A stretch of DNA of 64,000 nucleotides. It comes from Crocinitomicaceae bacterium. Its GTDB lineage: Bacteria; Bacteroidota; Bacteroidia; Flavobacteriales_D; Crocinitomicaceae. The stretch covers positions 8,527 to 72,526 of the forward strand of contig JBIPMW010000308.1 in NCBI GenBank assembly GCA_044376455.1, given 5' to 3'. The notes beneath the pieces are model-generated. The model did not search any database, was not told the origin of the DNA, and saw only the letters and a program-made list of their open reading frames with translations. Shown here piece by piece: positions 16,741 through 32,659 of the stretch (positions within the stretch are counted from its first letter, which is position 1; each line of letters begins with the position of its first letter). Both the position numbers and the translations under genes were made by a program.

Positions 16741-16749
16741 ATTTTTAGG

Positions 16750-17085: not shown

Positions 17086-17105
17086 TTTTTGAACGTTTGT
17101 ACTAA

Positions 17106-17139: not shown

Positions 17140-17187
17140 ATTGCTTAGTCAGCAATATAAGAATTGCAATTTTATAAGAAGCCTACT

Positions 17188-17400: not shown

Positions 17401-17434
17401 CGTCTTAATCCTTGCGTGTTTTGCTTACATCTTT

Positions 17435-17480
17435 AATATATCCGATTCTCCCAATAAAGTCAACAGATTGGGAGAATTAT
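17435..17480 (-). promoter_or_regulatory. promoter/operator module copy 5
   Basis: Minus strand reads TTGACT, a 17-nt spacer, then TATATT, with inverted repeat TCTCCCAA..TTGGGAGA. Confidence 0.6.
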
Positions 17481-17514
17481 TTCTGAACGCTTGTACTAAG
17501 TATATTTACTCGTT

Positions 17515-17955
17515 ATTATTGTAGATAGATTGTAGATAGGGTGATCGACAATCAAAAGCCTTATAGAGTATAGGTTTTAAGGTTTGTAGATAATGTCGAT
17601 GGACTATAGAGGAAAAAAAGAAAAACAAAAGAATAAACCAGACTGGACAATAAAAAGACTGCAAAAGAAACAAGCAAGGTCAGCAGTAAGGCTGTTAGAT
17701 TGTAATTCGATTGTTAATAACCTTATCTACAATCGAAAGTCTTGCAGGGTATAGGTTTCGAGGTTTGTTTATCTTGTCGATGCCCTATACAGGGGAGAGA
17801 AAAGATAGGGAGAGATAAACGAACTGGACAATAAGGAAGGATAAAAAATCCTGACACGGGGAAATAGAGTAACAATATAAACAAAGTCTAGAAACTATAT
17901 ATATCAATGCTTTTCATTGTTGATCATCTTATCTACAGTCTAATTACAAACTAGC
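17515..17955. repeat. ORF-free repeat arm R1 (TTGTAGATA 9-mers, two ~75-80-bp units, TATATATATCAA motif)
   Basis: Exact 9-mers at 17519, 17530 and 17584, plus a reverse-complement copy at 17724. Units at 17547-17620 and 17723-17805 match R3 units in inverted orientation. Confidence 0.8.
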
Positions 17956-17958
17956 AAA

Positions 17959-17986
17959 ATAACCCCTATGAGTCCATAGGGGTTAT
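17959..17986 (-). terminator. intrinsic terminator after antirepressor-like gene
   Basis: ATAACCCCTATG-agtc-CATAGGGGTTAT with T-rich flanks. Confidence 0.7.
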
Positions 17987-18005
17987 TTGGGTTTAGGTAT
18001 TTTTA

Positions 18006-18737
18006 CTAGATCAGATTTTTGTATTTATTTGCTTCCGCTCGTTCCGCTTGACATTTAGCCGTCAGTTCAGAAAAAGCTAATCCGATATTTTCGTAGTCTT
18101 GAAGTCTTTGTTCAAACAAAGCGACTCGGCTGTAAAGCTTCGCAATCTTACCCGATTGAATTTCGTTTGAGTCTTTTAAGCACAATATCTCTAGAGTAAG
18201 TTCTGCAATCTTGTCTTTTTGAAGCTCAACTAATTCTAATAACGACTCTTGAGTCTCTCTCAACCCATTGATCATTCCCACAGAGGCAAGTGTTGAGTTT
18301 AGGCAATGTTTTCTTAGCCGTTCGTTGTCTTTGGTCAGTTGGGCGACTTGACACTCAAGCTTCTCTGTTGACTGTAAAACGGAATAACTTCCAGTTTTTC
18401 GGATTGAAGGAAGAACCTCCTGTACTACCCAATCCTGAAAAGGTTCTGATTGAGGCTTACGGCTAGTAAGAACTAATCGGTAGAGTCCAGACTCTGAAAC
18501 GACTACCATTTCTCGGTTTTGACCTGACACGGTTATTAACCGGGTCAGCTTTTCGTAGCCCTTTAACCGAGAATACGCTGTAGATGAGTCCTTAACTTCT
18601 AGTACATTGCAAACATCTTTACCGATAAACCACGGATTCCCGTCAATCAGGGTCACTCGAATTTCTTGAGTGTTAAACTGAAACGGGACAATATTTACAC
18701 TATTTTGATCAAATTCCTGTAAACTAATATTAGCCAT
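18006..18737 (-). CDS. BRO-N domain antirepressor-like protein with C-terminal coiled coil
   Basis: ..VPFQFNTQEIRVTLIDGNPWFIGKDVCNVLEV.. is a BRO-N-type N-terminus. The C-terminal half is heptad-rich. Confidence 0.75.
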   Translation of the reverse strand: MANISLQEFDQNSVNIVPFQFNTQEIRVTLIDGNPWFIGKDVCNVLEVKDSSTAYSRLKGYEKLTRLITVSGQNREMVVVSESGLYRLVLTSRKPQSEPFQDWVVQEVLPSIRKTGSYSVLQSTEKLECQVAQLTKDNERLRKHCLNSTLASVGMINGLRETQESLLELVELQKDKIAELTLEILCLKDSNEIQSGKIAKLYSRVALFEQRLQDYENIGLAFSELTAKCQAERAEANKYKNLI

Positions 18738-18768
18738 GATTTACTCTAGAGTAGTAATTGTGGTCAGT

Positions 18769-18787
18769 CCCCTGTTTAGAGCAGGGG
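18769..18787 (-). promoter_or_regulatory. conserved 5' leader hairpin (CCCCTG / CAGGGG)
   Basis: Same position and flanks (TATGCCCC..GGGGACTrACCA) as the hairpin at 29347-29364, with one compensatory base-pair change. Confidence 0.55.
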
Positions 18788-18825
18788 CATATTAGTATTG
18801 TACCACTTTAAATAATCAATTATCT

Positions 18826-18851
18826 CCCAATACAGAATTTTCTGTATTGGG
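18826..18851. promoter_or_regulatory. 26-bp palindrome CCCAATACAGAA-TT-TTCTGTATTGGG upstream of BRO-like gene
   Basis: Perfect 12-bp arms. The half-site TCTCCCAATA is shared with the six promoter/operator modules. Confidence 0.5.
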
Positions 18852-18980
18852 GAATCTGGACACAGAAAAAACGAGAATTAGGGAACCTGCTAACAAAGAT
18901 AACAAACCAATAAAACTTATATATATCAATACTTTCCACTGTCAATACCCTTGCTAACAATCTGTTAACGATATTAACTA

Positions 18981-19009
18981 AAAACCCGTCAATCAATTGA
19001 CGGGTTTTT
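18981..19009 (-). terminator. intrinsic terminator
   Basis: AAAACCCGTCAAT-ca-ATTGACGGGTTTT followed by a T run on the minus strand. Confidence 0.75.
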
Positions 19010-19010
19010 A

Positions 19011-19256
19011 TTAATTGAATTTTTCGTATTCTCTTAATATTATTTGGGTTGCCTCCTCAATTTGTTTTCCTTTTGATAGTAAGTTGAGAATTTTAACTAG
19101 AACTTGCCTGACTCGTTCTTTTCCTATCCCTAATTCTTTGGTAGTTGATGCCACTTTAAAGCGATAGTTCCGATGCCGGCAAGTTACAGGCACTGGGTCA
19201 AGATTGTTGTTTCTAGCCCACACCAGATAAATGTAGGCTTGTCTAGCTGTAATCAT
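19011..19256 (-). CDS. small HTH protein resembling sigma-70 region 4
   Basis: ..TKELGIGKERVRQVLVKILNLL.. resembles the region 4.2 pattern LGVSRERVRQIE. Confidence 0.45.
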   Translation of the reverse strand: MITARQAYIYLVWARNNNLDPVPVTCRHRNYRFKVASTTKELGIGKERVRQVLVKILNLLSKGKQIEEATQIILREYEKFN

Positions 19257-19307
19257 TTTTTGTTTTCTGTAGTAGTCATGATTTGTCTCCTTATGTGTTT
19301 TGTTTTA

Positions 19308-19321
19308 CTGATAACTGATAA
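19308..19321 (-). repeat. CTGATAA heptamer repeat, 2 copies
   Basis: ctgataa ctgataa, in an intergenic position. Confidence 0.6.
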
Positions 19322-19326
19322 AAACT

Positions 19327-19932
19327 TTATTGTGGTTTTTCCCAATTTGATTCAGAAAATCCCATTTTCCAGGCCAATTCTTTAATTTTTGGCTGTACTT
19401 CGGCGTGGATGGGAGCCTTGCCTAAAATTATTCTTGTTGCAGTGTCATAATTTTTTTCAGGATCTTCATTGTATTGGAAGTAATATTCGCTGAGATGCTC
19501 GCTTGCATATTCCTGAATAATAGAATTAATATAAGCAATGGCGCGAGTGCCATTTTCTTGAATCTCTTTTACAGAAGGAAATCGGCTTAAAAGAGAGGGT
19601 GATAATTCAAAATCAGGAAAAGCAAAAGCTATCCTGGGAAGAAGATCAATTTCAATTTCCCATCTTTTCTTTTGAGGATTCCATGCAGGCTTTTTGTCAT
19701 AAAAATAGTGTGCATTTTTCAGTCGATCAACTATACCTGGATCATACTTAGGAGTGGTAAGGGAAGCTTTAATATTGCCATCCTTGAAAAAAATTAATCC
19801 GATCTGGCCTTTTGGTAATTTTGCTAGTTGCCGATCTAGCTTTCGCAAAGTTTCTGGGATCAGCGATTCGTACCATTCCCGCATTATGCGGGAAGTTTCT
19901 TCTATTTGGCTTTCAAAGTTGTAGTTTTCCAT
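19327..19932 (-). CDS. hypothetical protein
   Basis: 201-aa ORF with CGGAGA upstream. No motif recognised. Confidence 0.6.
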   Translation of the reverse strand: MENYNFESQIEETSRIMREWYESLIPETLRKLDRQLAKLPKGQIGLIFFKDGNIKASLTTPKYDPGIVDRLKNAHYFYDKKPAWNPQKKRWEIEIDLLPRIAFAFPDFELSPSLLSRFPSVKEIQENGTRAIAYINSIIQEYASEHLSEYYFQYNEDPEKNYDTATRIILGKAPIHAEVQPKIKELAWKMGFSESNWEKPQ

Positions 19933-19997
19933 GATAGGTAATCTCCGTGTGTTTTGTTTTTACTGATAACTAATTAAATGCTTTACAATAGAAAATA

Positions 19998-20582
19998 TCA
20001 ATTACTAAAATCAATACTGTTTCTATTTTCGATCCACCACTTAGCAGAAATAGGGATTTCGATTTCTTTTTTCCATGCACTTACAATCTCTTGTAAGTGT
20101 TGTAAAGCTATATTTTTTGCCCATTTCACTTGTTTTTCGCTTCCTTGAAACTCAGTAATTTCTACCCAGTTTATTGCATCTTCTAAGTCACTTTCGGAAG
20201 GAATGCCAAAAGTATAATATCCGCTTTCGTTTTTTTTAACTTCAACTGGAAGTTTATCCGATGTTTCCATATCTAGTTTTTGTTCGATTTGTAATTCTCG
20301 CCAAAAATTGGCAATAATCCAGTCAGCCATTTCTTTAAAATCTTTTTGTTCACGGCACGAATACCAGTAATCAATGTCGTTGTTTTTTTGCCACCAGTAA
20401 TAAAAAGCGTCCCAGATTTCTTGCCGCGTTTCTTCAGTAAGAAGAAGATTGATTCGAGTAAGTACCTTTCCTCGATAGGAATCAAGGGAAGCAATAGATC
20501 GGTGATTAAAGTTTTTTGAGCGATCAAAAAAGATTTCGGAATTTATGCGATCAATTATGGGATTAGTAGAAGGGAAAAACAT
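19998..20582 (-). CDS. hypothetical protein
   Basis: 194-aa ORF with AAGAGGA upstream. Confidence 0.6.
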   Translation of the reverse strand: MFFPSTNPIIDRINSEIFFDRSKNFNHRSIASLDSYRGKVLTRINLLLTEETRQEIWDAFYYWWQKNNDIDYWYSCREQKDFKEMADWIIANFWRELQIEQKLDMETSDKLPVEVKKNESGYYTFGIPSESDLEDAINWVEITEFQGSEKQVKWAKNIALQHLQEIVSAWKKEIEIPISAKWWIENRNSIDFSN

Positions 20583-20634
20583 TGATTTGTCCTCTTGTGT
20601 TTTGCTTACTTTTCTAATATAGATCGAATCTCTC

Positions 20635-20675
20635 GATAGGTGTTGGCGGAGTGTGACAGTTTATCAAGTGTCACA
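20635..20675 (-). promoter_or_regulatory. conserved 41-bp block with inverted repeat TGTGACA-N10-TGTCACA (copy 1)
   Basis: Nearly identical to 21157-21197. It lies about 40-60 nt upstream of a TATATT element and the shared GTAAGCAAAACAC leader. Confidence 0.45.
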
Positions 20676-20699
20676 ATCTATTAACTTCTAAAGATACCC

Positions 20700-20737
20700 T
20701 AAAACAATAACCCCAATGCCAGTAAAGCATTGGGGTT
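20700..20737 (-). terminator. intrinsic terminator
   Basis: AACCCCAATGC-7 nt-GCATTGGGGTT followed by ATTGTTTT on the minus strand. Confidence 0.65.
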
Positions 20738-20758
20738 AGACCGATTTTAATCTAGATT

Positions 20759-21109
20759 TTATCTGATTAATTTATCAAGGTTGTGTCCTTTTTTACGAAG
20801 CCAATCCCATGCGTCGCCAGGACAATTACACCCATCGAGCCACATCTTAATTATTAGCTTGATAAACCCGTAACCGGTGAGACTGTCAACTTTATTTTCA
20901 ATTTCAACAGACGCCCGCCCAGTGCGGATATACATAGCAATCCCGTAAAGAATGCCGTCCCACTCACACCATTGCTTACTGTCAATTACGCCATCTTTTC
21001 GCATATTTTCTAAGGTACGGCATAAATGCCGATTGACTTTTTCCCGTTTAACGCGGGTAGTCCACTCAGCGTAGTTGAGAATGTCTTTAGCGAAAGATTG
21101 AATTAACAT
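20759..21109 (-). CDS. hypothetical protein
   Basis: 116-aa ORF with no motif recognised. Confidence 0.55.
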   Translation of the reverse strand: MLIQSFAKDILNYAEWTTRVKREKVNRHLCRTLENMRKDGVIDSKQWCEWDGILYGIAMYIRTGRASVEIENKVDSLTGYGFIKLIIKMWLDGCNCPGDAWDWLRKKGHNLDKLIR

Positions 21110-21156
21110 AGGAAACCTCGGTTTTGTTTACTTTTTTATAGTAGATCGGTTTCTTT

Positions 21157-21197
21157 GATAAGTGTTGGTGGAGTGTGACAGTTTATCAAGTGTCACT
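21157..21197 (-). promoter_or_regulatory. conserved 41-bp block with inverted repeat TGTGACA-N10-TGTCAC (copy 2)
   Basis: Overlaps the stop codon of the Mom-like gene and lies upstream of 20759-21109. Confidence 0.45.
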
Positions 21198-21818
21198 ATG
21201 GGTATCTACTTTCTTAGCTTGTTTGACATCATCTTTTTTGGGGTACGGAAGGGATAAACGGCTGATTTGTTTTCTAGTTTTTTTATCTAAAGGATACAAA
21301 TATTTGTGTTTACTTGATCCTTTTACTGCTCGTGCCTCTGGATACTTTTTTACTCCTCCCATAGAAGAAAGGGTTCGTCCGTGCATTCTTTTTCCTTTTA
21401 AAATATACTCAGTCGGTTGCTTCATGCGACCTACATATATCCAGTTACCAGCTTGATAAATAACGCCTAAATGGTTTTGTGCAGTGTCCGCATAAGAAAT
21501 AATTAATTTTAAGCCAACACAATGATTTTTTAGTAAATTAATTGACTTTGAAACTATTTGAGTAACAGGTGATTGATGTTTCTTTAATGCTACTCTAACT
21601 AACTCACAGCATTCAAGACTGAGTAAACCTTACGGTTTACTCAGATTATTATTTGCGCCAAGACCAAAAACAACAGCACCGATAAACTCTTCATTTTCCC
21701 ACACACCTATTTTAACAAGTTTACTAGCCGGTATAGTTTTAGAATAATGATAGTTTTGACAAGCGTATTTTGCGGCTTCATAACTACAAAAAGCAACTTT
21801 TAATTCTACTTTATCCAT
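21186..21818 (-). pseudogene. Mom-like GNAT-fold protein interrupted by one in-frame TAA (pseudogene or recoded gene)
   Basis: The N-part ..YHYSKTIPASKLVKIGVWENEEFIGAVVFGLGANNNLSKP* and the C-part GLLSLECCELVRVAL..LIISYADTAQNHLGVIYQAGNWIYVGR.. are in the same frame. ATG 21818 overlaps the end of the ParB-like gene. Confidence 0.6.
21619..21644 (-). other. perfect 11-bp hairpin with GUAA tetraloop that contains the in-frame UAA
   Basis: The minus strand reads CTGAGTAAACC-GTAA-GGTTTACTCAG. Confidence 0.85.
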
Positions 21819-22422
21819 TAGTCCATTCATGCCCACATTTAGGACAAATAGTAGGATTTTTGACATCTAATCGAGGTTGTTCTTCTTCGCTTGGTTGAAA
21901 ATCAGGGGAATCATCATAATTTTCATCCGAAGCATTTAAAGCTTCTAGGATTGAATTTAAATCGCCGATTACTCCTAAATTTTCCCCTTTTTCATCAAGG
22001 TATTCAGCTTGATGAATTAGTAAGTCAGGGTCAAAAAGCTTTAATTCTGTAGCAAGGTCAAGCCCCGCCCCGTGAATCGTAGAATGATTGTGAATAATCG
22101 AGTATTTTGTAGCTTGAGCCTCATTTTTAGCGTGAACTCCTACTAAAATAGGAACCATCCACTCCCCATCATTGTCAATATCTATACCTCTAGGACGATC
22201 TATTTTTCGCTTTTTAATTGCTAATAGTGCGGCACACCGATCATGACCCTCAGTAATCCCCCCTTTTCCGCCGTTTAAGCTCGGATCGTAGCCAATTGGG
22301 TCTTTAAATCCCAATTCCAATATTGAAGCTATTGTGTTTTCAGTGGCGTGTTTTTTGGAATTACCCTTTAATTGTTTTAAATCGCAAAGCCGTCGATACT
22401 CAATTTCTAATTTATCTGTCAT
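21811..22422 (-). CDS. ParB-like nuclease domain protein with C-terminal zinc ribbon
   Basis: ..GFKDPIGYD....ITEGHDRCAALLA.. fits the ParB-nuclease pattern, and CPKCGH lies at the C-terminus. Start moved to MTDKLEIEY. Confidence 0.6.
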   Translation of the reverse strand: MTDKLEIEYRRLCDLKQLKGNSKKHATENTIASILELGFKDPIGYDPSLNGGKGGITEGHDRCAALLAIKKRKIDRPRGIDIDNDGEWMVPILVGVHAKNEAQATKYSIIHNHSTIHGAGLDLATELKLFDPDLLIHQAEYLDEKGENLGVIGDLNSILEALNASDENYDDSPDFQPSEEEQPRLDVKNPTICPKCGHEWTNG

Positions 22423-22463
22423 GATTGATGTAAGATTAAATAACTCTACTACTATAATAACCA

Positions 22464-23231
22464 ATGGTTATAACTAATCGAGGCAGAAAACGCACTTATT
22501 CTATCCATGAAGAGGTAATCGAGTTTACCAAGTATCCTATCTGGGAACAGCAAGAACTAGAAACCCCTGACTGGTTTGAAAGATTTCAGATTTTTTACCT
22601 TCCTATTCCGTCAGGCTATCGCACTTTAAATCGAGCCTACGGTAACTGCGGGGAAGCTTCTGGGGAACAGATAGAGAAGACTAAATTTAAACGAGCTAAG
22701 ACTGTTCCGGACGACTGGCAGTTAGCCCATAAAAACTATCGGTGGGAAGAGCGAGCGAAAGCCTATTGGCTTTTGAAGATTCAAGAACAACAAGCTTACA
22801 CTGATAGTATTTTACGAGAAGTCAGAGAAAGAACTCTAAAGATTACTTTAAAAAACCTTGAAAAAATTGAACAGATGACCAATTATCCGATTTCTCGCCG
22901 TCGGATAGATTCTGTGGACGAATCGGGACGACCAATTGCTATAACAATTGAACCTAACGGGAATTGGAGCCATAGAGACGCGGTGACTATGGCTAAAACG
23001 TTAACCGATACCTTTGAAAAAGTTTTAGGTTTTGATACGATTGAGTATGCAATTAATATCGTTCAAAAGCACGGATTAGCTGTCATTGACCCTGACGGAA
23101 AGCTTATAGGACATTCTGATACGGAGGGGCCCGATGACGGACTAACCTCGATTATTCGTAATAGTGCCGAATTTGATGATGATGATGTAATGGTTCCCAC
23201 TAGGATAAATAATGATGATGAGAGCGAGTAA
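22464..23231 (+). CDS. putative terminase small subunit
   Basis: 255-aa ORF that overlaps the terL start by 20 nt. It has a W..ERAKAYW motif and an acidic tail. Confidence 0.5.
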   Translation: MVITNRGRKRTYSIHEEVIEFTKYPIWEQQELETPDWFERFQIFYLPIPSGYRTLNRAYGNCGEASGEQIEKTKFKRAKTVPDDWQLAHKNYRWEERAKAYWLLKIQEQQAYTDSILREVRERTLKITLKNLEKIEQMTNYPISRRRIDSVDESGRPIAITIEPNGNWSHRDAVTMAKTLTDTFEKVLGFDTIEYAINIVQKHGLAVIDPDGKLIGHSDTEGPDDGLTSIIRNSAEFDDDDVMVPTRINNDDESE

Positions 23232-24864
23232 ATTATCATTAAAAAATCTATCTAAGATAAAAACAGCGACCGAAAAATATCGACTTGTTAATACCAAAGA
23301 AGAAATTGTTTTTCCTCAATTACAAGAGGGAAAACAAGCTTTATTTGGGGAAATTGATGCTGATGTAATCTTCTATGGCGGAGGCGCAGGAAGTGGCAAG
23401 AGCGCCGGGTTATTAATTGATTTTGCCCGTCAAGAATTTATTAGTAATCCTGACTATCGGGCTGTCATATTTCGTCGGACGTATCCTGAATTTACTCAAG
23501 CAGGTGGACTAATAGATGAAAGCCAAAAAATTTATCAAGCAGTGAAAGGTAATTTTATTGAAAAGCCTCCAGGGTGGCGATTTCCACTCGGATCAAAAAT
23601 ATCTTTTAGGCATTTACAATACGAAAAAACTGTCTATGTTTACCAGGGCGGACAAATTACGAGGATAGGTTTTGACGAATTAACTCACTTTACAGAAGAG
23701 CAGTTTTTTTACCTTCTTTCTAGAAACCGTTCGGTATCAGGCATTAAACCAGCCGTTAGGGCAACCTGTAACCCCGATGCTGACTCATGGGTAGCTAATT
23801 TTATCTCTTGGTGGATTGATCCTAAAACTGGGTACGCTACTGAAGAAAGAGGGGGAATAGTTCGATATTTTATTAGACGAGAAAACACAGTCCACTGGGC
23901 TGATACTAAAGAAGAATTAATTGATAAATTTAGTCTTAAAGATGAACTTTTTGACCTTATTCCTAAAGATAAAAGAGAAAAGTTTTTATCAAATATAGAT
24001 ACTAATATTACACCAGATAAGCTGATTAAAAGTTTTACTTTTATTCCTGCTACGATTTTTGATAATCCAGCTTTAATCAGGGTTAACCCTACCTATTTGG
24101 CTAACCTTTACGCTTTACATCCTATCGAACGTGAAAGACTTCTCAGAGGTAACTGGAAAGTTAAATATGAAGCTGGTACGGTATTTGATCGGACTTGGTT
24201 TGAGATTTTCGATAAAGTACCCAATGATTGGAAGTTAATAGGTAAAGTGAGATTCTGGGATTTAGCGGCAACGGCTAAAGAAAATGCCGAAAACTACCAT
24301 TGTTACACCAGTGGGACTCTTGTTTATAAATACCAAAGAATTAAGAATACACTGCCAGATTTAACTGAAATCAAGGAATTTGCTTATGTAATTGCTGACA
24401 ATATCTGTGAACAGAAAAAGGTCGGGGAAGTGGAATTAATGCTTAAAAATACTGCTGAATTAGACGGGAGAACCGTAGCTGTAAGGTGGGAACAGGAAGG
24501 GGGATCGAGTGGTAAATTTGTTGAGAATACGATCACTAATGTTATCAGAGAAAATCACCCGAACCATGATATTAAGGCGATAGCACCTCAAGGGGATAAA
24601 CTTACTAGGGCTTTACCCGTGGCAACAGCAGCTAGTCGAGGACAAATCTTTATTTTAAGAGATGGGACATGGAATACTAGGTTCCTAAATGCTTGTCAGG
24701 GCTTTGATGGTAGCAAAAAAACACCCCCGACTAATGACATCGTGGATAGTCTATCGGGGGCTTTTTATTCTCTTGAAAATGAATTTCAGGGACATGAGGA
24801 AGTTATTAGCACGATTATTGATACTGTTCCCCTCAATCGGTTTAGGGTCGGTTTTAGTCGCTAG
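23212..24864 (+). CDS. terminase large subunit
   Basis: Walker A FYGGGAGSGKS, FDELTHF (Walker B-like), and a C-terminal nuclease-like half. 550 aa. Confidence 0.85.
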   Translation: MMMRASKLSLKNLSKIKTATEKYRLVNTKEEIVFPQLQEGKQALFGEIDADVIFYGGGAGSGKSAGLLIDFARQEFISNPDYRAVIFRRTYPEFTQAGGLIDESQKIYQAVKGNFIEKPPGWRFPLGSKISFRHLQYEKTVYVYQGGQITRIGFDELTHFTEEQFFYLLSRNRSVSGIKPAVRATCNPDADSWVANFISWWIDPKTGYATEERGGIVRYFIRRENTVHWADTKEELIDKFSLKDELFDLIPKDKREKFLSNIDTNITPDKLIKSFTFIPATIFDNPALIRVNPTYLANLYALHPIERERLLRGNWKVKYEAGTVFDRTWFEIFDKVPNDWKLIGKVRFWDLAATAKENAENYHCYTSGTLVYKYQRIKNTLPDLTEIKEFAYVIADNICEQKKVGEVELMLKNTAELDGRTVAVRWEQEGGSSGKFVENTITNVIRENHPNHDIKAIAPQGDKLTRALPVATAASRGQIFILRDGTWNTRFLNACQGFDGSKKTPPTNDIVDSLSGAFYSLENEFQGHEEVISTIIDTVPLNRFRVGFSR

Positions 24865-25060
24865 TAGTCCGTCCACAATGCCAAACTATACCAGGAGTAT
24901 TGACACGTTCTATTTCGATTGGATTCTTGTTTTTACTCCCAAAATATTTGTTCCAATACCAAATAGCTTCTGTTTCTGCTTTTAATTCTGATTCTGATTC
25001 TTTTGTTGCGATAAGAAGACTAAACGATGTGACTGAATCTTTAATTAGGTACAGGCTCAT
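24854..25060 (-). CDS. hypothetical protein
   Basis: 68-aa ORF with GAGGA 5 nt upstream. Last gene of the LuxR-like/HigA-like operon. Confidence 0.4.
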   Translation of the reverse strand: MSLYLIKDSVTSFSLLIATKESESELKAETEAIWYWNKYFGSKNKNPIEIERVNTPGIVWHCGRTTSD

Positions 25061-25089
25061 AAATCCTCGTTAATAATTGTAAAAATTTC

Positions 25090-25368
25090 CTAATCGATTT
25101 GATTTGCTAGAGATTCTCGGTAAAGTCTTTCGCGCTCTATCCAAAAATGAGCAGTAGGTACGCCTAAAGCTAGTCCCATTTTGTAAGCAATACGAATAGT
25201 AATTCCTGCTTTACCTTTTATTAGTTGATTGATAGTTTTTTTATGTAACCCCATTCGATTAGCAAATTCAGCCCTAGTTATTTTTCTTTCTTTTAGGATT
25301 TCGGCAAGGGTTTCTCCTGGTGGAGAGATAAAATCTGGCATATATTTATTCTCAATAGTATTAGTCAT
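25090..25368 (-). CDS. HigA-family XRE-type HTH protein
   Basis: PGETLAEILKERKITRAEFANRMGLHKKTINQLIKGKAGIT fits the HigA antidote pattern. Confidence 0.7.
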   Translation of the reverse strand: MTNTIENKYMPDFISPPGETLAEILKERKITRAEFANRMGLHKKTINQLIKGKAGITIRIAYKMGLALGVPTAHFWIERERLYRESLANQID

Positions 25369-25382
25369 AGATTTTCGTTAAA

Positions 25383-25799
25383 CTACATATTTTTCCATAT
25401 TCCAGGCGGAATTAGACATTTTTGAACACCCCATAAAGCGCATTGTTCTTCTTCGTCATCGTCAATCATATCTTTGGCTATATCCCATCCCGTATGCTGA
25501 TAGAAAAAGAACATAAACTTAGGTTGAGTCGAAATATTAAATTTTTTTAAAATTGCCGTTGTATAATCATTTACTATTTCAGTTTTTAGTAAAAGTTTTT
25601 TAGCAATTTCTTTGTTATCAAACCCACAAAGAAAATAAAAACAGACCTTTTTCTCTAGAAGAGATAATTGATACCAGCAAAGCCAAAAATGACGATGGCT
25701 TGGAGACATACATTCTTCAATTTCTTCTTCGATTGTTTCTTCATCTTCTTCAATTTCTTCTTCGATTGTTTCTTCGATTTCTTCTATGTATTCTTCCAT
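25383..25799 (-). CDS. LuxR/GerE-type HTH protein with poly-acidic repeat N-terminus
   Basis: LSLLEKKVCFYFLCGFDNKEIAKKLLLKTEIVNDYTTAILKKF. The N-terminus (EEIEETIEEEIEEDEETIEEEIEE) is encoded by a 33-bp tandem repeat at 25715-25775. Start chosen at the ATG with AGGAG upstream. Confidence 0.5.
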   Translation of the reverse strand: MEEYIEEIEETIEEEIEEDEETIEEEIEECMSPSHRHFWLCWYQLSLLEKKVCFYFLCGFDNKEIAKKLLLKTEIVNDYTTAILKKFNISTQPKFMFFFYQHTGWDIAKDMIDDDEEEQCALWGVQKCLIPPGIWKNM

Positions 25800-25818
25800 T
25801 GTTTTACTCCTCATTTGA

Positions 25819-26316
25819 TTACCTACCAAATAAGAAAGATGCGGCGCCAAGTAAATACACCCATTCTTCTTCAAGCATTAATTCCGTTTTAGAAGGGTCG
25901 GCTATATCAAATAAACAAAAGTCAACTTCATCTATACGATCACTGTCGTAATATAACTCAATATTAGTATTTGGAAATACTGTCATGTATGCAAATTTAA
26001 ACGTGGCATTTTGGCGATTTTTGCACGTTAATATAGATGAATGATTTGGATTCTCCCACGGAATACGATCTCTAAAGCTTTGATAGGTTACTTTTAACTT
26101 CCAGTCAATAACTGAGGGAAAGTCTTCCTTAAAATGAGTTTCTTTTACCCATTTAGCGATTTCATCAACTATCCATCCCTGTTTTTTTTGGATAAAATAA
26201 TGGATTCCTTCTGAGTATTCAAAAGGATAAATTAACTTTGTTTTGTACCAGGTTATCTCGAACTCTTGCGGTGCAGAGTTAATTTTAGGGAATTGTCCTA
26301 TGTCTATCATTGTCAT
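25819..26316 (-). CDS. DUF6876-like protein, paralog A
   Basis: ..LIYPFEYSEGIHYFIQKKQGWIVDEIAKW.. is shared with paralog B. The family assignment is from memory. Confidence 0.5.
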   Translation of the reverse strand: MTMIDIGQFPKINSAPQEFEITWYKTKLIYPFEYSEGIHYFIQKKQGWIVDEIAKWVKETHFKEDFPSVIDWKLKVTYQSFRDRIPWENPNHSSILTCKNRQNATFKFAYMTVFPNTNIELYYDSDRIDEVDFCLFDIADPSKTELMLEEEWVYLLGAASFLFGR

Positions 26317-26340
26317 TGTTTTACTCCTAAGTTATTTTTA

Positions 26341-26367
26341 CTGATAACTGATAACTGATAACTGAAA
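26341..26367 (-). repeat. CTGATAA heptamer tandem repeat, 3-4 copies
   Basis: ctgataa x3 followed by ctgaaac. Confidence 0.8.
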
Positions 26368-26706
26368 CTAATACTCAGAGGATAGCAATAAAACACCGTC
26401 ACACAACCAAAGCGTGACCTCTGAAAGAGGAAAATCGGTAAATGGGATCTGCTGACTTATGGCAGATTCATTGTCTTGTTCGCAGGTAAGGACTGCGGAT
26501 TTATCGGAGTTAACTATTAGCATCCAGAACTGAATCTGGCTTGAATCAAGTTCTTTTTGCCATGACGCAATTGCATCAAGTATCCAATAGCCTCCCCCAT
26601 TTTCTACTAAGTATTTAATACCGTCGGTGTACTCAAACGGGTAAAGGGGATTAGTATAGTAATTTTCCGTGCCATGAAAATTACTAAGATTTTCTAGTTT
26701 GTTCAT
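26368..26706 (-). CDS. DUF6876-like protein, paralog B
   Basis: FHGTENYYTNPLYPFEYTDGIKYLVENGGGYWILDAIASW. Start moved to MNKLENL, because the track start reads through the heptamer repeat. Confidence 0.5.
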   Translation of the reverse strand: MNKLENLSNFHGTENYYTNPLYPFEYTDGIKYLVENGGGYWILDAIASWQKELDSSQIQFWMLIVNSDKSAVLTCEQDNESAISQQIPFTDFPLSEVTLWLCDGVLLLSSEY

Positions 26707-26733
26707 TTTTTTTACTCCTAAATAAGTTGTTAG

Positions 26734-26747
26734 CTGATAACTGATGA
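26734..26747 (-). repeat. CTGATAA heptamer repeat, 2 copies
   Basis: Part of a 45-bp block (ttttactcctaaataagttgttagctgataactga) duplicated at 27003-27045. Confidence 0.6.
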
Positions 26748-26757
26748 CCACTATCTA

Positions 26758-27003
26758 TTAGTAGGTATTAAGAACAGTATAAATCCATTCCTTTATGTCT
26801 GGTGACAACTCAGATGTCGTAATAATCGGAGGCAGATTTAAATCAGGATAGAACATTACATAGTATTGTTCAAGGCTTTCAAATGCTGAACAAGGCAATA
26901 CATTTTCATAAGCAGTCAAAACTGTCATTATGTGCTTTTGTTTAACAAAAAGCGTGATTTTACCTACGTTTAAAGAGATACCTTCAATGCGAATACCCTT
27001 CAT
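26758..27003 (-). CDS. hypothetical protein
   Basis: Start moved to MKGIRIEG with AGGAG upstream. Confidence 0.5.
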   Translation of the reverse strand: MKGIRIEGISLNVGKITLFVKQKHIMTVLTAYENVLPCSAFESLEQYYVMFYPDLNLPPIITTSELSPDIKEWIYTVLNTY

Positions 27004-27029
27004 TTTTTTACTCCTAAATAAGTTGTTAG

Positions 27030-27045
27030 CTGATAACTGATAACT
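27030..27045 (-). repeat. CTGATAA heptamer repeat, 2 copies
   Basis: ctgataa ctgataa ct. Confidence 0.6.
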
Positions 27046-27056
27046 ATGCTGACAAT

Positions 27057-27431
27057 TTAAGGTCTTTGTAAAAACAGACAACCTAAAATAACCCCAGGGT
27101 TATTTTTGTCCCGGACTAATGCGCCAGGAGCAAGGCAGTCCACACGACCTACTTTAGCGGCCGCGGCAGCCACTAATCCAGAGACGATGTAGTAAACATC
27201 CTTCTGATACTCAGGGAGTCCCTCGATCTCCCCATAAATGACGGATTCAATAGGAATCCCGTTAATTTCCCCTGCGGGGGAATTGCTCATGGAAACACGG
27301 GGAAGAACCCCTGACGGGGGGATTTCTTTGACAACTTCGACGGTTTCAGCAAGAAACTGTCTTTTGGAGTCTTGCTCGACTCCTTTTTTGGAAACTATTG
27401 TTATTACATGGGGGGTTGCGTTAATAATCAT
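27057..27431 (-). CDS. hypothetical protein
   Basis: 124-aa ORF (MIINATPHVITIV..) downstream of promoter copy 6 and the triple SD repeat. Confidence 0.6.
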   Translation of the reverse strand: MIINATPHVITIVSKKGVEQDSKRQFLAETVEVVKEIPPSGVLPRVSMSNSPAGEINGIPIESVIYGEIEGLPEYQKDVYYIVSGLVAAAAAKVGRVDCLAPGALVRDKNNPGVILGCLFLQRP

Positions 27432-27433
27432 TA

Positions 27434-27464
27434 CCTTAATCTCCTTAATCTCCTTAATCTCCTT
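27434..27464 (-). repeat. 9-bp tandem repeat AAGGAGATT x3.4 (triple Shine-Dalgarno)
   Basis: The minus strand reads AAGGAGATTAAGGAGATTAAGGAGATTAAGGTA-ATG. Confidence 0.85.
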
Positions 27465-27483
27465 GTTTTACTTGTCTAGACTC

Positions 27484-27530
27484 ATCTTACGATATTCTCC
27501 CAATAAAGTCAAGTATTTGGGAGAATTATT
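27484..27530 (-). promoter_or_regulatory. promoter/operator module copy 6
   Basis: Minus strand reads TTGACT, a 17-nt spacer, then TAAGAT, with inverted repeat ATTCTCCCAA..TTGGGAGAAT. Confidence 0.6.
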
Positions 27531-27623
27531 TCTAAACGTTTGTACTGATAACGGCTTGCGTGAGCGGCGGACAGATAAAACCGATATAACGGGAAAAGTT
27601 TCACCCGTCCGCTCCACGCTTTG

Positions 27624-28705: not shown

Positions 28706-28776
28706 GCCGGGGGAGTAAAACGGTTCACGCAAGTCTCATAAGCTTGAAACAGTGGGTTCAATTCCCATCCCCGACA
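28706..28776 (+). tRNA. tRNA with CAU anticodon (Met, or Ile2 if lysidinylated)
   Basis: Hand-folded. Acceptor GCCGGGG/CCCCGAC has a C2:A71 mismatch. Anticodon arm is CAAGT-CTCATAA-GCTTG. T arm is GTGGG-TTCAATT-CCCAT. The D arm is weak, position 8 is G, and no CCA is encoded. Confidence 0.55.
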
Positions 28777-28780: not shown

Positions 28781-29074
28781 TTAAACAAAATCCCAGTTAA
28801 GAGAATTATTAAATCCTTGTATATCAGCAAGGGCTTTTTCTCCTGATCGGGTGAGCCGATAGTATCTTTTTCTAGCACCGCCTCTATCGCTAGATCGTTC
28901 AGTTCCCCATCGGGATTTAATAAGTTCTTTTTCCTCTAGCTTTTGGAATACAGGGTAAAATGAGCCAATATCAAGGCTTTTACCTTTAATATCAGCTATA
29001 GATTGAATTGTCTGTAATCCCGACAATTCTTTATTGTAAAGAGTCCGCAAAACAAGGATTTCTGTGTTTGTCAT
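28781..29074 (-). CDS. PadR-family transcriptional regulator
   Basis: ..GSFYPVFQKLEEKELIKSRW......RKRYYRLTRSGEKAL fits the PadR winged-helix pattern. Confidence 0.8.
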   Translation of the reverse strand: MTNTEILVLRTLYNKELSGLQTIQSIADIKGKSLDIGSFYPVFQKLEEKELIKSRWGTERSSDRGGARKRYYRLTRSGEKALADIQGFNNSLNWDFV

Positions 29075-29394: not shown

Positions 29395-29919
29395 ATGGCT
29401 GTTTCTAGTTTACAACGTTTTGATCACGATGGTATCGAGTTAATCATCGATACCCAGACCGGTGAGAGCTTTGCCTCAATTAGTGGATATGCCCGGATGT
29501 CAGGGAAAATACCTTCGACTGTTTCTCGCCGTTTGACTATGAGTGGTTTGCGTGAAAAAGGTCTTGAACAGGCTCAAATCGAGACAGCAAGTGGGTTACG
29601 AACCGTTGCATTGATACCAGAAAATTTAATCTGCCAGTGGCTAATTAAAGACAATCACGAACTAGCCCTAAAAGTAATGCAGTTGGGCGTTCGCTTATTC
29701 CTTCACACATTAGCGGGTTTTCAGGTCAAAAGTGAGGCAATTGAGACTAACAAGCGACTTGATAGCCAAATTGCTGAATTAACTGCCAAAATCGAAAAAT
29801 TGGACTACAAAGAAGTTGACTATATTGACGAGATACTTGACTTAAAAGAGCAAATCAAAAAGCTTGAGAGCGAGAACTCTACCCTAGAAGAACAAATCGA
29901 GTTAATGGGGGGATATTAG
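29395..29919 (+). CDS. antirepressor-like (KilA-N/BRO-type N-domain) protein with C-terminal coiled coil
   Basis: MAVSSLQRFDHDGIELIIDTQTGESFASISGYARMSG.. has the same start pattern MA..SLQ.FD and the same architecture as 18006-18737. Confidence 0.55.
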   Translation: MAVSSLQRFDHDGIELIIDTQTGESFASISGYARMSGKIPSTVSRRLTMSGLREKGLEQAQIETASGLRTVALIPENLICQWLIKDNHELALKVMQLGVRLFLHTLAGFQVKSEAIETNKRLDSQIAELTAKIEKLDYKEVDYIDEILDLKEQIKKLESENSTLEEQIELMGGY

Positions 29920-29983: not shown

Positions 29984-30011
29984 CCCCTGTAGGGACTACA
30001 GGGGTTTTTAT
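29984..30011 (+). terminator. intrinsic terminator
   Basis: CCCCCTGTAG-gga-CTACAGGGG followed by TTTTT. Confidence 0.8.
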
Positions 30012-30016: not shown

Positions 30017-30095
30017 AATGTTCGGAGCTTAGTGGGTAATGTTCGGAGCTTAACAGCCTAATGTTCGGAGCTTAGTGGGTAATGTTCGGAGCTTG
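30017..30095 (+). repeat. four direct 15-bp iterons TAATGTTCGGAGCTT (period 21-22 bp)
   Basis: Exact copies at 30017, 30038, 30060 and 30081, with spacers agtggg / aacagcc / agtggg. Confidence 0.9.
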
Positions 30096-30099
30096 GCTA

Positions 30100-30815
30100 G
30101 TTTGTTAGTCTGTAAATAGATTGTAGATAGATTGTAGATAGAAATATTAACAATGGAATCCTTGATATATATAGATTTCAGACTTTGTTTATATTGTTAG
30201 CCTTATCCCCGTGTCGGGTTTTTTTGTGTTCTTATTGCTGACTTCGATTAATTAGATTGTTAGTTTGTAAATAGATTGTAAATAAGGGTATTTACAAAGA
30301 CAGAAAAGATGAAAGCTATATATATCAATACTTTCATCCTTTTTTTACTTCTTTGTAGATATTGTTAATGATTACCCCGTGTGTGTTTTTTGCTTTACTG
30401 TTGAGACTGTTTCTTTTTATTGCTAACCTTGTTTGGTTTCTTTATCTTTCTCTCCTCCCTATAAGACATCGACAATATCTACAAAGTCTAAAATCTAATC
30501 AGGGTAAGGCTTTCAATTGTAGATAAGCCTATTTACAATCAAACACAAAAAGAACAAATTAGCGATGAATCACTTTTCACCTCTAAAATTCCCTGATTAG
30601 CCAAAAATACGGCATTTTGTCAATAGAGTCAGTTTTGCGTTTAATCACTTTTATTGCTGACCTTGCCGTACATCTTTTACTCTATTTTCTTTTTTCCTCT
30701 GTAAGGCATTGACAATATCAACAAAGTCTAGAACCTTTATAGGGTAAAGGTTTCGATTGTAGATAGGGTTATCTACAATCTATCTACAATCTAACAATCG
30801 CTCTGTAGTATTTGT
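30100..30815. repeat. ORF-free repeat arm R3 (TTGTAGATA 9-mers, ~75-bp units, TATATATATCAA motifs)
   Basis: Forward 9-mers at 30122, 30133, 30354, 30518 and 30758. Reverse-complement copies at 30477, 30771 and 30782. TTGTAAATA variants are also present. Units at 30451-30526 and 30692-30766. Confidence 0.85.
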
Positions 30816-31046
30816 AATATATGTAATACGGATAGATAAAAAAAAACGCTCCCTCGTAAAGCGGTAGTCCAAGTCAATCTTTTTAAGAATTTTCTCACAG
30901 TCCTAATAGAATTGTCAAGGCAAAAAAATAACCGCGCTCCCGGGTGCGGTATAAAAGAGCGCGGCGGTGTAAATATGTTTTCCTTTTAAGTATATCTCAA
31001 AAAAGAAAATTCAATATATAATACAATAAACAGTACAATCTCGTTA

Positions 31047-31505
31047 ATGTCTCAAAAAGTCCTTACAGGTAATCTCTATTTAATAGGGCAGTCGTATCCT
31101 ACGATTGCCAGTGAAACTGTTATCGAGGTTAAGCAGGGAACGACTTGGGATGAGGAGTTTTTTATTCAAGGAGATTTTACAGGATGGAACATTAATTTTT
31201 ATATTGCCAAGCAATCAGGCGAGGCTAGAATAGCTACTGGTCGGATCGAGGGATTGCAGTTTGGAGATTTTACGGTAGAGGGAACTGAATATGAAAATTA
31301 CACTTATTTTAAGCTAATTATCGATAGTAATATTACTGCTGAGATGGAAGTTACCCCTATTGCTTTTAAAGAAATTGAACAACCGAAAGCTGGTAGGGAT
31401 TACTGGCAAGCTGATTTAGAGGCTTCTAAATCAATTGCTACTAAATTGATAGTTCAACCTTTAGCCCTTGATTTAACTCCTGTAGTAGTGAGGGGGCAAG
31501 TCTGA
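31047..31505 (+). CDS. hypothetical protein (first gene of plus-strand fibre-like block)
   Basis: 152-aa ORF whose stop overlaps the next start (ATGA-type coupling). Confidence 0.55.
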   Translation: MSQKVLTGNLYLIGQSYPTIASETVIEVKQGTTWDEEFFIQGDFTGWNINFYIAKQSGEARIATGRIEGLQFGDFTVEGTEYENYTYFKLIIDSNITAEMEVTPIAFKEIEQPKAGRDYWQADLEASKSIATKLIVQPLALDLTPVVVRGQV

Positions 31506-31864
31506 TGGCAGTCATTGTTCAATCCTCTGGTGCGATAGCAGAAATAACAGGTAGTTCTCAAAAGATAATTCTTTCAGCTACTTTAGGGAATGCTGGCTGG
31601 TCTCCTATTCTTTCTTTAATTTCTGATGGCAATCGTCGGGTATTGCAAGTATCTGGCTGGGTAGGAGGTTCTGGTTTACCCCCCGATATCGGAGGGTATA
31701 TCGGAGCTTCTGGATTAGTTTCTTTAATTGCTAATGCAATTGATATTCGTGGCAGTGAAGGTAAATCAGCTTATCAAGTGGCTATTGATAATGGATTCAC
31801 TGGCACGGAGCAAGATTGGCTTAATAGCCTAGAAAACACGCAATGGATAATTACAGATTGGTAA
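31505..31864 (+). CDS. tail-fibre-related protein
   Basis: GKSAYQVAIDNGFTGTEQDWLNSL is a motif common in phage tail-fibre proteins. Confidence 0.5.
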   Translation: MAVIVQSSGAIAEITGSSQKIILSATLGNAGWSPILSLISDGNRRVLQVSGWVGGSGLPPDIGGYIGASGLVSLIANAIDIRGSEGKSAYQVAIDNGFTGTEQDWLNSLENTQWIITDW

Positions 31865-31868
31865 AAAT

Positions 31869-32441
31869 ATGAGTACATTTAAGCCCTCTAAATTAACTGC
31901 AGTCCCATCGCTACCCTGCGAGGGTAACGCTGTGTTTTTTGTTGCGCCTCAAGACAAGCCGAACTATATTGAAATATATGTAAGCAATACTTCTGGGACT
32001 GCTCTAAAGCGACTATTGACAGATGTAGATATTCAGGCATTAATCGATGCTTCAATTTCTGGATTAGCTGGTGAAATGCCGATTGTAGCTGATATAGCAG
32101 CAAGAAATGCTTTAGTGCTGACCAAAAACACTCAGGTATTGGTTCTGGACGCGACTGGCGATTCCACTGTGACAAGCGGCGCGGCTACTTACCTCTATAG
32201 AGTTTCTACGACTTCTTGGATTAAATTAAACGAAGCTGAATCGCTTGATTTGATTTCACAATGGGCTAATATTCAGGGAAGGCCTACTAGCTCTCCTACT
32301 GCTATTGATACGGCGGTGTCCAATAGCCACACTCACACCAATAAAACTCAGCTTGATAAAATAGGAGAAAATACTGATGGACTTTTTACCTATAATAATA
32401 GCTTGCCTAAAATTGAATGGGAGGGAACAATTGCATGGTAG
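31869..32441 (+). CDS. tail-fibre-related protein
   Basis: ..SNSHTHTNKTQLDKIGE.. is a motif seen in phage fibre and tail proteins. 190 aa. Confidence 0.5.
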   Translation: MSTFKPSKLTAVPSLPCEGNAVFFVAPQDKPNYIEIYVSNTSGTALKRLLTDVDIQALIDASISGLAGEMPIVADIAARNALVLTKNTQVLVLDATGDSTVTSGAATYLYRVSTTSWIKLNEAESLDLISQWANIQGRPTSSPTAIDTAVSNSHTHTNKTQLDKIGENTDGLFTYNNSLPKIEWEGTIAW

Positions 32442-32659
32442 TTTTTCGTCCTGAAAAAGTATTAGGAGGCCTTCCCCCTACTCTAACGCCTAATGCCGTT
32501 TATTTTGTTCGGGTAGGAAGTGGAATCATGATTTATGTCGCTGATGCTACGGGAAGCGCGGCTTATCCTATAAACCAAACTACCATTACATACGGAACAT
32601 CGCCTCCTAACAATAACGATGGAAACCCAGAAGGTAGCATTTACATCCAAGTAACTTAA
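32417..32659 (+). CDS. hypothetical protein
   Basis: 80-aa ORF that overlaps the upstream gene by 25 nt. Confidence 0.45.
   Translation: MGGNNCMVVFRPEKVLGGLPPTLTPNAVYFVRVGSGIMIYVADATGSAAYPINQTTITYGTSPPNNNDGNPEGSIYIQVT

Follow-up and report, generated by a model that had tools for sequence, protein, structure and literature searches.

Arrays of a two-part 9-bp site in a lake phage contig as candidate operator platforms beside antirepressor-like genes

Introduction

Why should an intergenic stretch of some 0.7 kb in a phage genome carry the same 9-bp word eight times, in both orientations? The stretch, here called R3, lies near the middle of the 64-kb window that we analysed (the whole 64,000-nucleotide stretch, C205:8527-72526), which is part of an 86.5-kb phage contig, C205 (JBIPMW010000308.1; 36.6% GC), within a mixed 3.2-Mb metagenome-assembled genome (MAG). 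A first-pass annotation of the window had recorded the word, likened it to a DnaA box and compared the layout with an iteron-type origin furnished with AT-rich unwinding elements. Below we examine how the word is distributed and built into larger repeats, what kind of site it represents and which genes it accompanies. We find that R3 is one of five intergenic arrays on C205, and we give about an even chance to the reading in which they are operator arrays for a putative phage regulator, heading transcription units beside swappable antirepressor-like genes. Several other explanations, among them replication origins, mobile elements, partition sites and RNA elements, are weighed where the evidence touches them.

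Results and discussion

The 9-mer is concentrated in a few intergenic arrays

The window holds 14 exact copies of the word (TTGTAGATA/TATCTACAA), whereas dinucleotide-preserving shuffles contain 0.72 on average and never more than 3. Recounting confirmed that eight of them fall in R3 (30121-30789), each one base lower than originally given: five on the plus strand (30121, 30132, 30353, 30517 and 30757) and three on the minus strand (30476, 30770 and 30781). Another four are found in a second array, R1, as had been claimed (17519, 17530 and 17584, plus strand; 17724, minus strand). The TTGTAAATA variants are likewise present (30265 and 30276, and on the minus strand 30289 and 30530), as is the extended form TTATCTACA at about 17723 and at 30769, and R3 does start with the tandem pair ATTGTAGATAGATTGTAGATAG and end with its inverted form.

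A comparison with the rest of the genome gave 72 copies of the 9-mer in the 3.2-Mb MAG versus 31 for a reversed-word control. Within the MAG, clusters of the 9-mer occur only on C205 and on three short strain-variant contigs (C120, C246 and C433), with none outside the phage contigs; two strain variants of the phage are present in the MAG. The enrichment is steeper for the degenerate site TTGT[ATC][AGT]AT[AG], which reaches 20.7 per kb in the five arrays; outside them its density drops to 0.39 per kb on C205, a difference of about 53-fold, and to 0.32 per kb across the remaining MAG. Five near-complete relatives carry 13-18 exact 9-mers each (control 0-1), again grouped, at 2-4 loci.

Arms and modules

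The sites are not scattered within the arrays but follow a fixed plan (coordinates in Table 1). An nhmmer profile made from one module picked out 20 arms, each about 110 bp long, in the MAG. Going inward from the outer end, an arm begins with two to four tandem 11-mers (ATTGTAnATAG), followed 13 bp on by an inverted copy, which creates the palindrome ATTGTAGATA-N4-TATCTACAAT in each arm. Beyond the palindrome come a gap of about 32 bp and a box, (C/T)TAGAC-TTTGTnGATA-nnGT(C/T)GA, that holds two more sites. This makes five or six sites per arm, starting at about 0, 11, 24 (inverted), 64 and 73 bp. The spacings of 11, 13, 40-41 and 9 bp recur in every arm, and these offsets put the majority of sites on roughly the same side of the helix.

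Two kinds of arm can be told apart. In A arms the gap contains the block TTGATATATATAG, conserved at 95% or more across 30 unique arms, whereas B arms are mirror copies that keep the sites and have degenerate sequence in place of the block. An A arm facing a B arm forms a module of about 250 bp, with the two arms around a centre of about 100 bp. C205 has single modules at 6929-7185 (module M1) and 81516-81765. R3 is a composite with the order A1 A2 B1 B2, R1 reads A B B on the minus strand, and R2 has a single A-like arm. The words TGATATATATA and TATATATA are each confined on C205 to arms, at six places.

The GC content of R3 is 31%, versus 36.6% for the window. The 60 bp of lowest GC lie outside R3, at about 30970, and the TATA block, 13 bp long, behaves as a specific word.

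The recognition site and its resemblances

When the sites in 28 related R3 sequences were oriented and compared, conservation was 0.92-0.94 over TTGT and 0.91-0.99 over ATA, 0.71-0.73 at the two central bases and 0.75-0.87 in the flanks. Since TTGT and ATA are conserved while the central pair varies, we infer a two-part site, TTGT-NN-ATA, for a putative phage-specific DNA-binding protein. The 9-mer TTGTAGATA is the commonest form of this site (145 of 240 sites, taken from 92 unique arms). Across the 240 sites the central pair is AG, TA, AA, TG, CG, TT or CA, and never GG. In the palindromes the N4 spacer varies and even flips orientation among strains, and one palindrome in two has an uncompensated mismatch at the NN pair. 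Such a variable spacer and uncompensated mismatches point to separate protein sites rather than to a selected RNA hairpin or cruciform stem.

The resemblance to a DnaA box does not survive this comparison. Read on the opposite strand the site is TAT-NN-ACAA, which fits the box consensus TTWTNCACA only with C as the second N. The 8/9 match that had been pointed out is arithmetically right, but the base that it misses is invariant in the box: not one of the 240 sites carries the required C (position 6), and R1 and R3 contain no TTWTNCACA match, the five matches in the window all being scattered. We therefore ruled out a cluster of DnaA boxes. A search for a dnaA gene in the MAG, which is 83% complete, found none.

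Other known sites were rejected on similar grounds. Cas12a repeats end in TTGTAGAT; for mimicry of a CRISPR (clustered regularly interspaced short palindromic repeats) or Cas12a repeat the half-sites of the arrays stand in the wrong order, and the arms are unlike the MAG's own CRISPR repeats. NtcA and RpaB sites (the latter of the high light regulatory 1, HLR1, type) judged by their consensus sequences, failed on spacing or on conserved positions.

A closer likeness was met in an E. coli sequence, the mazEF operator CTCGTATCTACAATGTAGATTGATATATACTGTATCTACATATGATAGCGT, where three MazE dimers bind (Zorzini et al. 2015, PMC4333400). The mazEF 'cab' sequence has the words TATCTACAAT and ATTGATATATA in the same order as the A arm and consists of adjacent sites for a dimeric regulator that overlap the promoter region; unlike the arrays it is 47 bp long, with three sites at one locus upstream of its own toxin-antitoxin genes. 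This raises the possibility that a host protein of the MazE/AbrB (swapped-hairpin) type binds the phage sites, in which case the arrays would serve to recruit, or to titrate, an antitoxin or global regulator of the host. The A arm and 'cab' share GTATCTACAATG and ATTGATATATA in order and orientation, and module M5 aligns with 'cab' at 25/28 positions with one 2-nt gap (p < 0.001 versus shuffles for three of the four A arms). However, the match came out of a literature search for the word itself, so that only the second block is independent; no PF04014 protein is encoded on C205 and only a single sub-threshold match was found in the MAG; E. coli and a cyanophage are distant; and the half-sites are arranged differently in the operator. 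We put the chance of a coincidence of this kind among the 387 papers that the search returned at a few per cent or less and take the likeness as a lead on the fold of the putative binding protein, not as a finding; binding by a host protein of this type appears extremely unlikely.

A promoter-like core in the A arms

The AT-rich words TATATATATCAA that had been compared to unwinding elements were located at 17896, 18918 and 30317 and, as the reverse complement, at 30163. They turn out to belong to the near-invariant TTGATATATATAG block of the A arms, which reads as a −10-type element. The inverted 9-mer provides a −35-like TCTACA, TTAACA or TCAACA, and at a spacing of 17-18 bp from it the block reads TATAGN; TGn-TATATA is present in the block as well, and TGATATATA fits TGn plus TATATA. 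In a promoter scan the A arm of R1 scored 9/12 (TCAACA-18-TATAGT). The arms of R3 stayed under the threshold of the scan, whose rule demands a hexamer ending in T. R2 has the consensus TTGACA and lies upstream of a codirectional Bro-N gene, and in four of five places the A arm is codirectional with the next operon. From these motifs, the A-arm core looks like a σ70-type or extended −10 promoter that would fire into the module. We also considered a rolling-circle (HUH) nick hairpin for the TATA block and rejected it, since most A arms have a stem of 2-4 bp and the longer stems, confined to some A2 copies, show no compensation.

In arm A2 of R3 the TATA block is inverted, but in the strain of the window only; 25 of 29 relatives have it forward, and RNA contigs with strand-switching joints at 30300/30344 show that the other orientation exists in nature. 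With the block inverted in its 15-nt loop (30301-30345) the −10-like element points the opposite way in this strain. Two other loops flip between strains, namely in the terminator at 29984-30004 (GGGAC versus GTCCC and AGAC versus GTCT) and in the N4 spacer at 30285-30290 (AGGG versus CCCT).

RNA contigs from three metatranscriptomes cover 30208-30412 within R3. Depth climbs steeply at gene 31047, the first gene of the operon that R3 precedes, which suggests that this gene has its own, nearer promoter. A terminator scan found no intrinsic terminators within R1 or R3.

The presence of RNA over part of R3 could also be taken to mean that the arrays work as RNA, either as small RNA genes or as a long two-arm hairpin, with antisense pairing of the kind seen in P1 c4 and P4 CI immunity controlling the antirepressors. 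The arms of one module are mutually complementary, and antirepressor-like genes do adjoin the arrays. Yet compensatory change is absent both within palindromes and between paired arms, whose inner boxes differ, the hairpin around the TATA block is not maintained, the arrays have no match in Rfam, and in folding the predicted transcripts have no advantage over shuffled sequence. We hold RNA elements of this kind to be very unlikely.

Tandem repeats on either side of a promoter core are known from parC of plasmid R1. With ten direct repeats at one locus, parC drives parMR, and proteins bind its repeats cooperatively on a single helical face. The arms share with parC the 11-bp tandem repeats on both sides of a promoter-like core; they differ in their mixed orientation, in occurring at several loci and in having no par genes downstream. 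Centromere-like partition sites for a plasmid-prophage state would be either built in this way or dispersed as in phage N15, which has four partition sites spread over its genome. A weak ParB_N domain at 16262-16621 (26.5 bits) fits such a role, and a ParABS system has been proposed for the Microcystis phage Mic1 (PMC7156551). The ParB_N match is at threshold, however, in a protein of only 119 aa, and among the proteins scanned there was no ATPase of the ParA or ParM type and no ParR. In the 596 Gbp of prokaryote genomes searched, the palindrome was found in no cyanobacterium, hence nothing points to a resident prophage or plasmid form, and a partition role is in our judgement highly improbable.

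Conservation of position and spread among relatives

R3 keeps its place. In every related IMG/VR contig with enough flank, about 40 in all, the homologue of gene 31047 follows 260-940 bp downstream of it. Save for one expanded locus it has 79-86% nucleotide identity to the window, and the first 154 bases of the adjacent gene have 82-92%. Relatives differ in how many arms they have at the R3 position, from 3 to 8, and in the genes that flank the arrays; in one of them the R1 array gives way to unrelated GC-rich DNA.

By blastn R3 has no match among known phages, and Ma-LMM01 and Mic1 lack the array, the palindrome being absent from both. In 596 Gbp of prokaryote genomes the palindrome gave only 32 unrelated single matches, none cyanobacterial. 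The 13-mer TATA block is at background, with 32 matches versus 31 for the control in 300 genomes of the same phylum; two matches on cyanobacterial plasmids are borderline (E = 0.04) and have no 9-mers nearby. The missing cyanobacterial match of the palindrome and the background level of the block led us to reject a host origin of the element.

These distributions also bear on whether the modules are non-autonomous mobile elements, whether resembling miniature inverted-repeat or palindrome-associated transposable elements (MITEs, PATEs) or miniature ends of the Tn7 or Mu type, in which the 9-mers would be subterminal transposase sites in terminal inverted repeats and R3 a nested insertion. Dispersed modules of about 250 bp with inverted arms of about 80-110 bp, and the nested or duplicated look of R3, are what such elements would show. 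The outermost repeats start with TGT, a 10-bp direct repeat (ACAAAAGAAC) stands on both sides of module M5, and C205 carries a TnpB-type gene. But the positions are fixed in the roughly 40 related contigs and in the five near-complete genomes, with no empty sites seen. The host has no copies, the palindrome is as rare in prokaryotes as described above, and no transposase fitting such ends was found. The systematic difference between A and B arms is moreover unlike terminal inverted repeats. We consider a mobile element quite unlikely.

Neighbouring genes and a possible regulatory role

Every array heads a transcription unit and has an antirepressor-like gene as its neighbour, whether of the Bro-N or Rha type or a third paralogue. 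Regulators are numerous in the phage, with proteins of the PadR, HTH_3 (25090-25368), GerE (25383-25874), Bro-N and Rha (C205:6020-6748) types, each a candidate for binding the sites. The gene for the PadR-family protein adjoins the R3 region in nearly all related loci, and its product is one candidate binder of the sites; a search for distant homologues of this gene, as a route to the binding protein, retrieved close relatives only.

Placed between genes, at the start of transcription units and beside swappable antirepressor-like genes, the arrays are best read as operators or enhancer-like platforms. A regulator would bind the sites of an arm cooperatively and wrap it, and the wrapped arm would switch the embedded promoter and probably affect neighbouring promoters too. 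The arrays, being repeated within the genome, could in addition serve as recombination hotspots. A partial precedent is the C1 operator of phage P1, a 17-bp sequence found once or twice per promoter at many promoters, including the antirepressor locus. Like TTGT-NN-ATA it is a single short asymmetric site used singly, in tandem and as imperfect palindromes; the present sites differ in being stacked, 5-19 per locus, in arms of about 110 bp.

Several observations weigh against operator arrays. The promoter at their core is predicted from motifs, and the protein that would bind the sites is putative. Most of the −10 candidates lack the final T (TATATA, TATAGA), while the 13 conserved bases exceed what would suffice for a plain promoter. 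Downstream, the conserved T run does not make a convincing intrinsic terminator, with just a 4-bp hairpin and in A1 only, and the predicted initial transcripts are unstructured (folding z of −0.44 to +0.16 versus shuffled sequence). The A arm of C205:6929-7185 aims at the 3′ end of a convergent gene. In the deepest metatranscriptome run the RNA depth over R3 is 7-74, part of which could be DNA carry-over, versus 570-2250 at gene 31047, and thus one to two orders of magnitude under the flanking genes. The whole 950-bp region is about as conserved as coding DNA, so that the sites are not sharply singled out. Finally, the architecture is equally that of an iteron origin.

Table 1. Coordinates of the arrays, their arms and the features around them. 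Positions refer to the window unless prefixed with C205.
Feature	Position	Strand	Remarks
R1 outer B-type arm	17518..17625	+	Starts with the tandem pair ATTGTAGATAGATTGTAGATAG
R1 inner B-type arm	17696..17805	+	From the profile search
R1 A-type arm	17838..17957	-	Promoter scan TCAACA-18-TATAGT, minus strand 17923-17894
Bro-N/antirepressor-like gene	18006..18737	-	Between R2 and R1; Pfam PF02498, 8e-21; phrog_130, anti-repressor Ant
R2 lone A-like arm	18850..18992	-	Degenerate sites; TTGACA, 16-18 nt, TATATA/TATAAG; conserved in related loci
PadR-family winged-helix regulator gene	28781..29074	-	Pfam PF03551, 7e-12; tblastn across loci
Antirepressor-like paralogue	29395..29919	+	Just upstream of R3; variable, absent or replaced among relatives
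Terminator hairpin	29984..30004		Scored on both strands, T-rich tail on the plus strand only; insulates R3 from the upstream gene
Four TAATGTTCGGAGCTT copies	30017..30095	+	Period of 21-22 bp; separate repeat, single locus in the phage
R3 four-arm composite array	30098..30800		19 TTGT-NN-ATA sites, 8 of them exact TTGTAGATA
Arm A1	30098..30232	+	Four tandem 11-mers, then the inverted site TTGTTAATA at 30145-30153 (minus)
Arm A1, core		+	−35-like TTAACA at 30147-30152; block TTGATATATATAG at 30162-30174; box CAGACTTTGTTTATATTGTT; CCCGTGTCGGG plus a T7 run
Arm A2	30253..30392	+	Three tandem sites and one inverted
Arm A2, TATA block	30313-30326		Inside the loop of the hairpin GATGAAAG/CTTTCATC
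Arm B1	30447..30555	-	Inward-facing mirror arm; same site layout without the TATA block
Conserved spacer	30556..30684		No 9-mers; conservation 0.84-0.97
Possible promoter in the spacer	30618-30646	+	TTGTCA-17-TTTAAT, read from sequence only
Arm B2	30685..30797	-	Mirror arm; inverted tandem pair CTATCTACAATCTATCTACAAT at its end
First gene of the operon preceded by R3	31047..31505	+	Highly represented in metatranscriptome contigs
Gene for the 960-aa protein	C205:73367-76249		Outside the window; Pfam DUF3987 at residues 417-751

Possible replication origins and enhancer-like platforms

The comparison with an iteron-type origin made in the first-pass annotation holds in part. The dense, non-random array of direct and inverted words, the 11-bp phasing and the signature of multi-site protein binding are all there. 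What does not fit is the number of loci, five on C205 and 2-4 in relatives. Were the arrays origins, a primase-helicase would bind the sites with its C-terminal winged-helix domain, and the inverted arms would flank a centre that is melted or primed; transcription from the A arm could assist, and a genome could have several origins, or an origin plus enhancer copies.

C205 does encode a suitable protein. The DUF3987 protein of 960 aa shows, when read by eye, a zinc finger, a Toprim-like stretch and a C-terminal winged-helix-like stretch, a domain order that we take to match P4 alpha, and it is likely to be the replication initiator, a P4-alpha-like primase-helicase. P4 alpha binds an 8-bp iteron in both orientations at two loci, ori and crr, and in the origins of Staphylococcus aureus pathogenicity islands (SaPIs) two sets of iterons flank an AT-rich, meltable centre. 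The modules resemble these P4 and SaPI systems in having an 8-9-bp motif in both orientations, in two sets around a centre and at more than one locus, in a genome that encodes a primase-helicase. Unlike them, they occupy five loci rather than one or two, none of these lies by the initiator gene, a promoter-like core is embedded in them and their centre is not markedly AT-rich.

Other details can be read for an origin. The short sites are helically phased in every arm, the centre of about 100 bp between the two arms has a conserved T run and a polypyrimidine tract, and module M5 is about 5 kb from the primase-helicase gene. Promoter-dependent origins are known in T4 and T7, and P4 ori/crr, T4, the oriS and oriL of herpes simplex virus and the baculovirus homologous regions (hrs) offer parallels for origins or enhancers in several copies. 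On the other side stand the five arrays in 86.5 kb, with none in or adjoining the primase-helicase gene, a GC minimum of the R3 region that lies outside the array, and a GC skew that tracks gene orientation and has no feature at R1 or R3; the varying number of arms among relatives also argues against this role. Nothing supports origin function over a regulatory role, and we think origins possible but on the unlikely side. The 15-mer TAATGTTCGGAGCTT next to R3 was tried as an essential iteron and set aside, since relatives have 0-7 copies of it, as expected of a variable tandem repeat.

The two roles might be combined. In baculoviruses, hrs are bound by a viral factor (IE-1), are prone to recombination and are credited with enhancer and possibly origin function. 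Like our arrays they are dispersed intergenic imperfect palindromes, several per genome, beside genes with a Bro-N domain; the arrays differ in belonging to a cyanobacterial tailed phage, in their unrelated repeat unit and motif and in the putative bacterial-type promoter core of their arms. A bolder proposal, which we rate as unlikely, is that the arrays are the tailed-phage counterpart of baculovirus hrs and herpesvirus oriS: palindromic, promoter-bearing platforms that, bound by the primase-helicase or by a dedicated factor, would act jointly as switches, as multiple origins and as recombination hotspots shuffling the antirepressor-like genes. If such a dual origin and enhancer function were true, it would extend a design of large eukaryotic DNA viruses to tailed phages. 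In practical terms, a 9-bp word found on 3-5 conserved non-coding platforms in each genome is a direct experimental handle, and the same oligonucleotide could capture the binding protein; anyone engineering or tracking bloom phages would also find in the arrays candidate promoters, origins and recombination junctions.

The phage and its host

The bin from which C205 comes is mixed, its largest contig (C105, 97.7 kb) having 57.6% GC and the other large contigs 36-45%. C205 encodes a T4-type large terminase, ribonucleotide reductase, a thymidylate-synthase-like gene, an endolysin, a DNA methyltransferase, a helicase, an open reading frame of 3119 aa and many small regulators. Among 50,697 phage records the best match to the large terminase is 40% identical, and the phage collection searched held no cultured representative of the lineage. 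Its close relatives are five IMG/VR contigs of 83-91 kb, rated 91-100% complete; given their size, C205 is nearly a whole genome. The lineage recurs in many lake metagenomes. Similarity to cultured phages is limited to 0.8 kb (window 31766-32575), which has 81% nucleotide identity to gp039-041 of Ma-LMM01 and to the MaMV phages. In the transcriptome of Ma-LMM01, gp037-041 form a separate expression cluster (PMC5780444).

A 57-spacer CRISPR array on another contig of the MAG, C108, has at least 10 spacers that match C205. Its repeat, GTTCCAATTAATCTTAAACCCTATTAGGGATTGAAAC, is presumably of the Microcystis type, and since an array of this type carries spacers against C205, Microcystis is the likely host. 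Most of the matching protospacers are preceded by 5′ GTT or GTC, which we take to be the protospacer-adjacent motif of a type I-D system. Two of them lie inside repeat modules, at window 17622-17656 in R1 and at C205:7057-7092 in module M1.

The phage also has a CRISPR mini-array of its own, four repeats of GTTTCAATCCCTAATAAAGCTTAAGCCTAATTGTTTC at C205:2640-2890 that closely resemble an array on the MAG contig C124. Together with the adjoining gene for a TnpB/Cas12f-like protein of 602 aa (C205:3060-4868; Pfam Cas12f1-like_TNB, OrfB_IS605 and HTH_OrfB_IS605) it lies 3.7-5.9 kb left of the window.

Other repeats and promoter cassettes

C205 has at least two further families of repeated promoter-like cassettes. 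D1 consists of ATTCTCCCAA..TTGGGAGAAT around TTGACT-17-TAAGAT on the minus strand and has its own palindrome, and D17 is built on the palindrome GTGACA-N10-TGTCAC; they are found at window 15270-27554 (six copies), at 20599-21199 and at C205:81800-81880. As both cassettes carry palindromes of their own, several classes of operator-controlled promoters seem usual in this phage. The promoter early stem-loop (PeSL) cassettes of T4-type phages, which are small units of a single promoter and hairpin, are like the 9-mer arrays in being repeated intergenic promoter cassettes that bound swappable genes, and they resemble D1 more than those arrays. A motif like D17, GTGTCACAAT, has been reported in the Mic1 paper.

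At the right edge of R3 there is a minus-strand mini transcription unit (30838-30918) with the promoter TTGACA-18-GAAAAT and an upstream TG, followed about 40 nt on by the terminator CGCTTTACGAGGGAGCG plus T9. Its −35 context, CTTGACAATTCTA, is found again at other C205 promoters. A tRNA gene (Rfam, 44 bits) lies at 28706-28776, between the PadR operon and the genes upstream. Tandem 11-bp A-tract repeats (AAAAAACTTAC, two to three copies) occur upstream of two leftward promoters (C205:76690-76730 and C205:81465-81490), and one of these sets directly abuts module M5.

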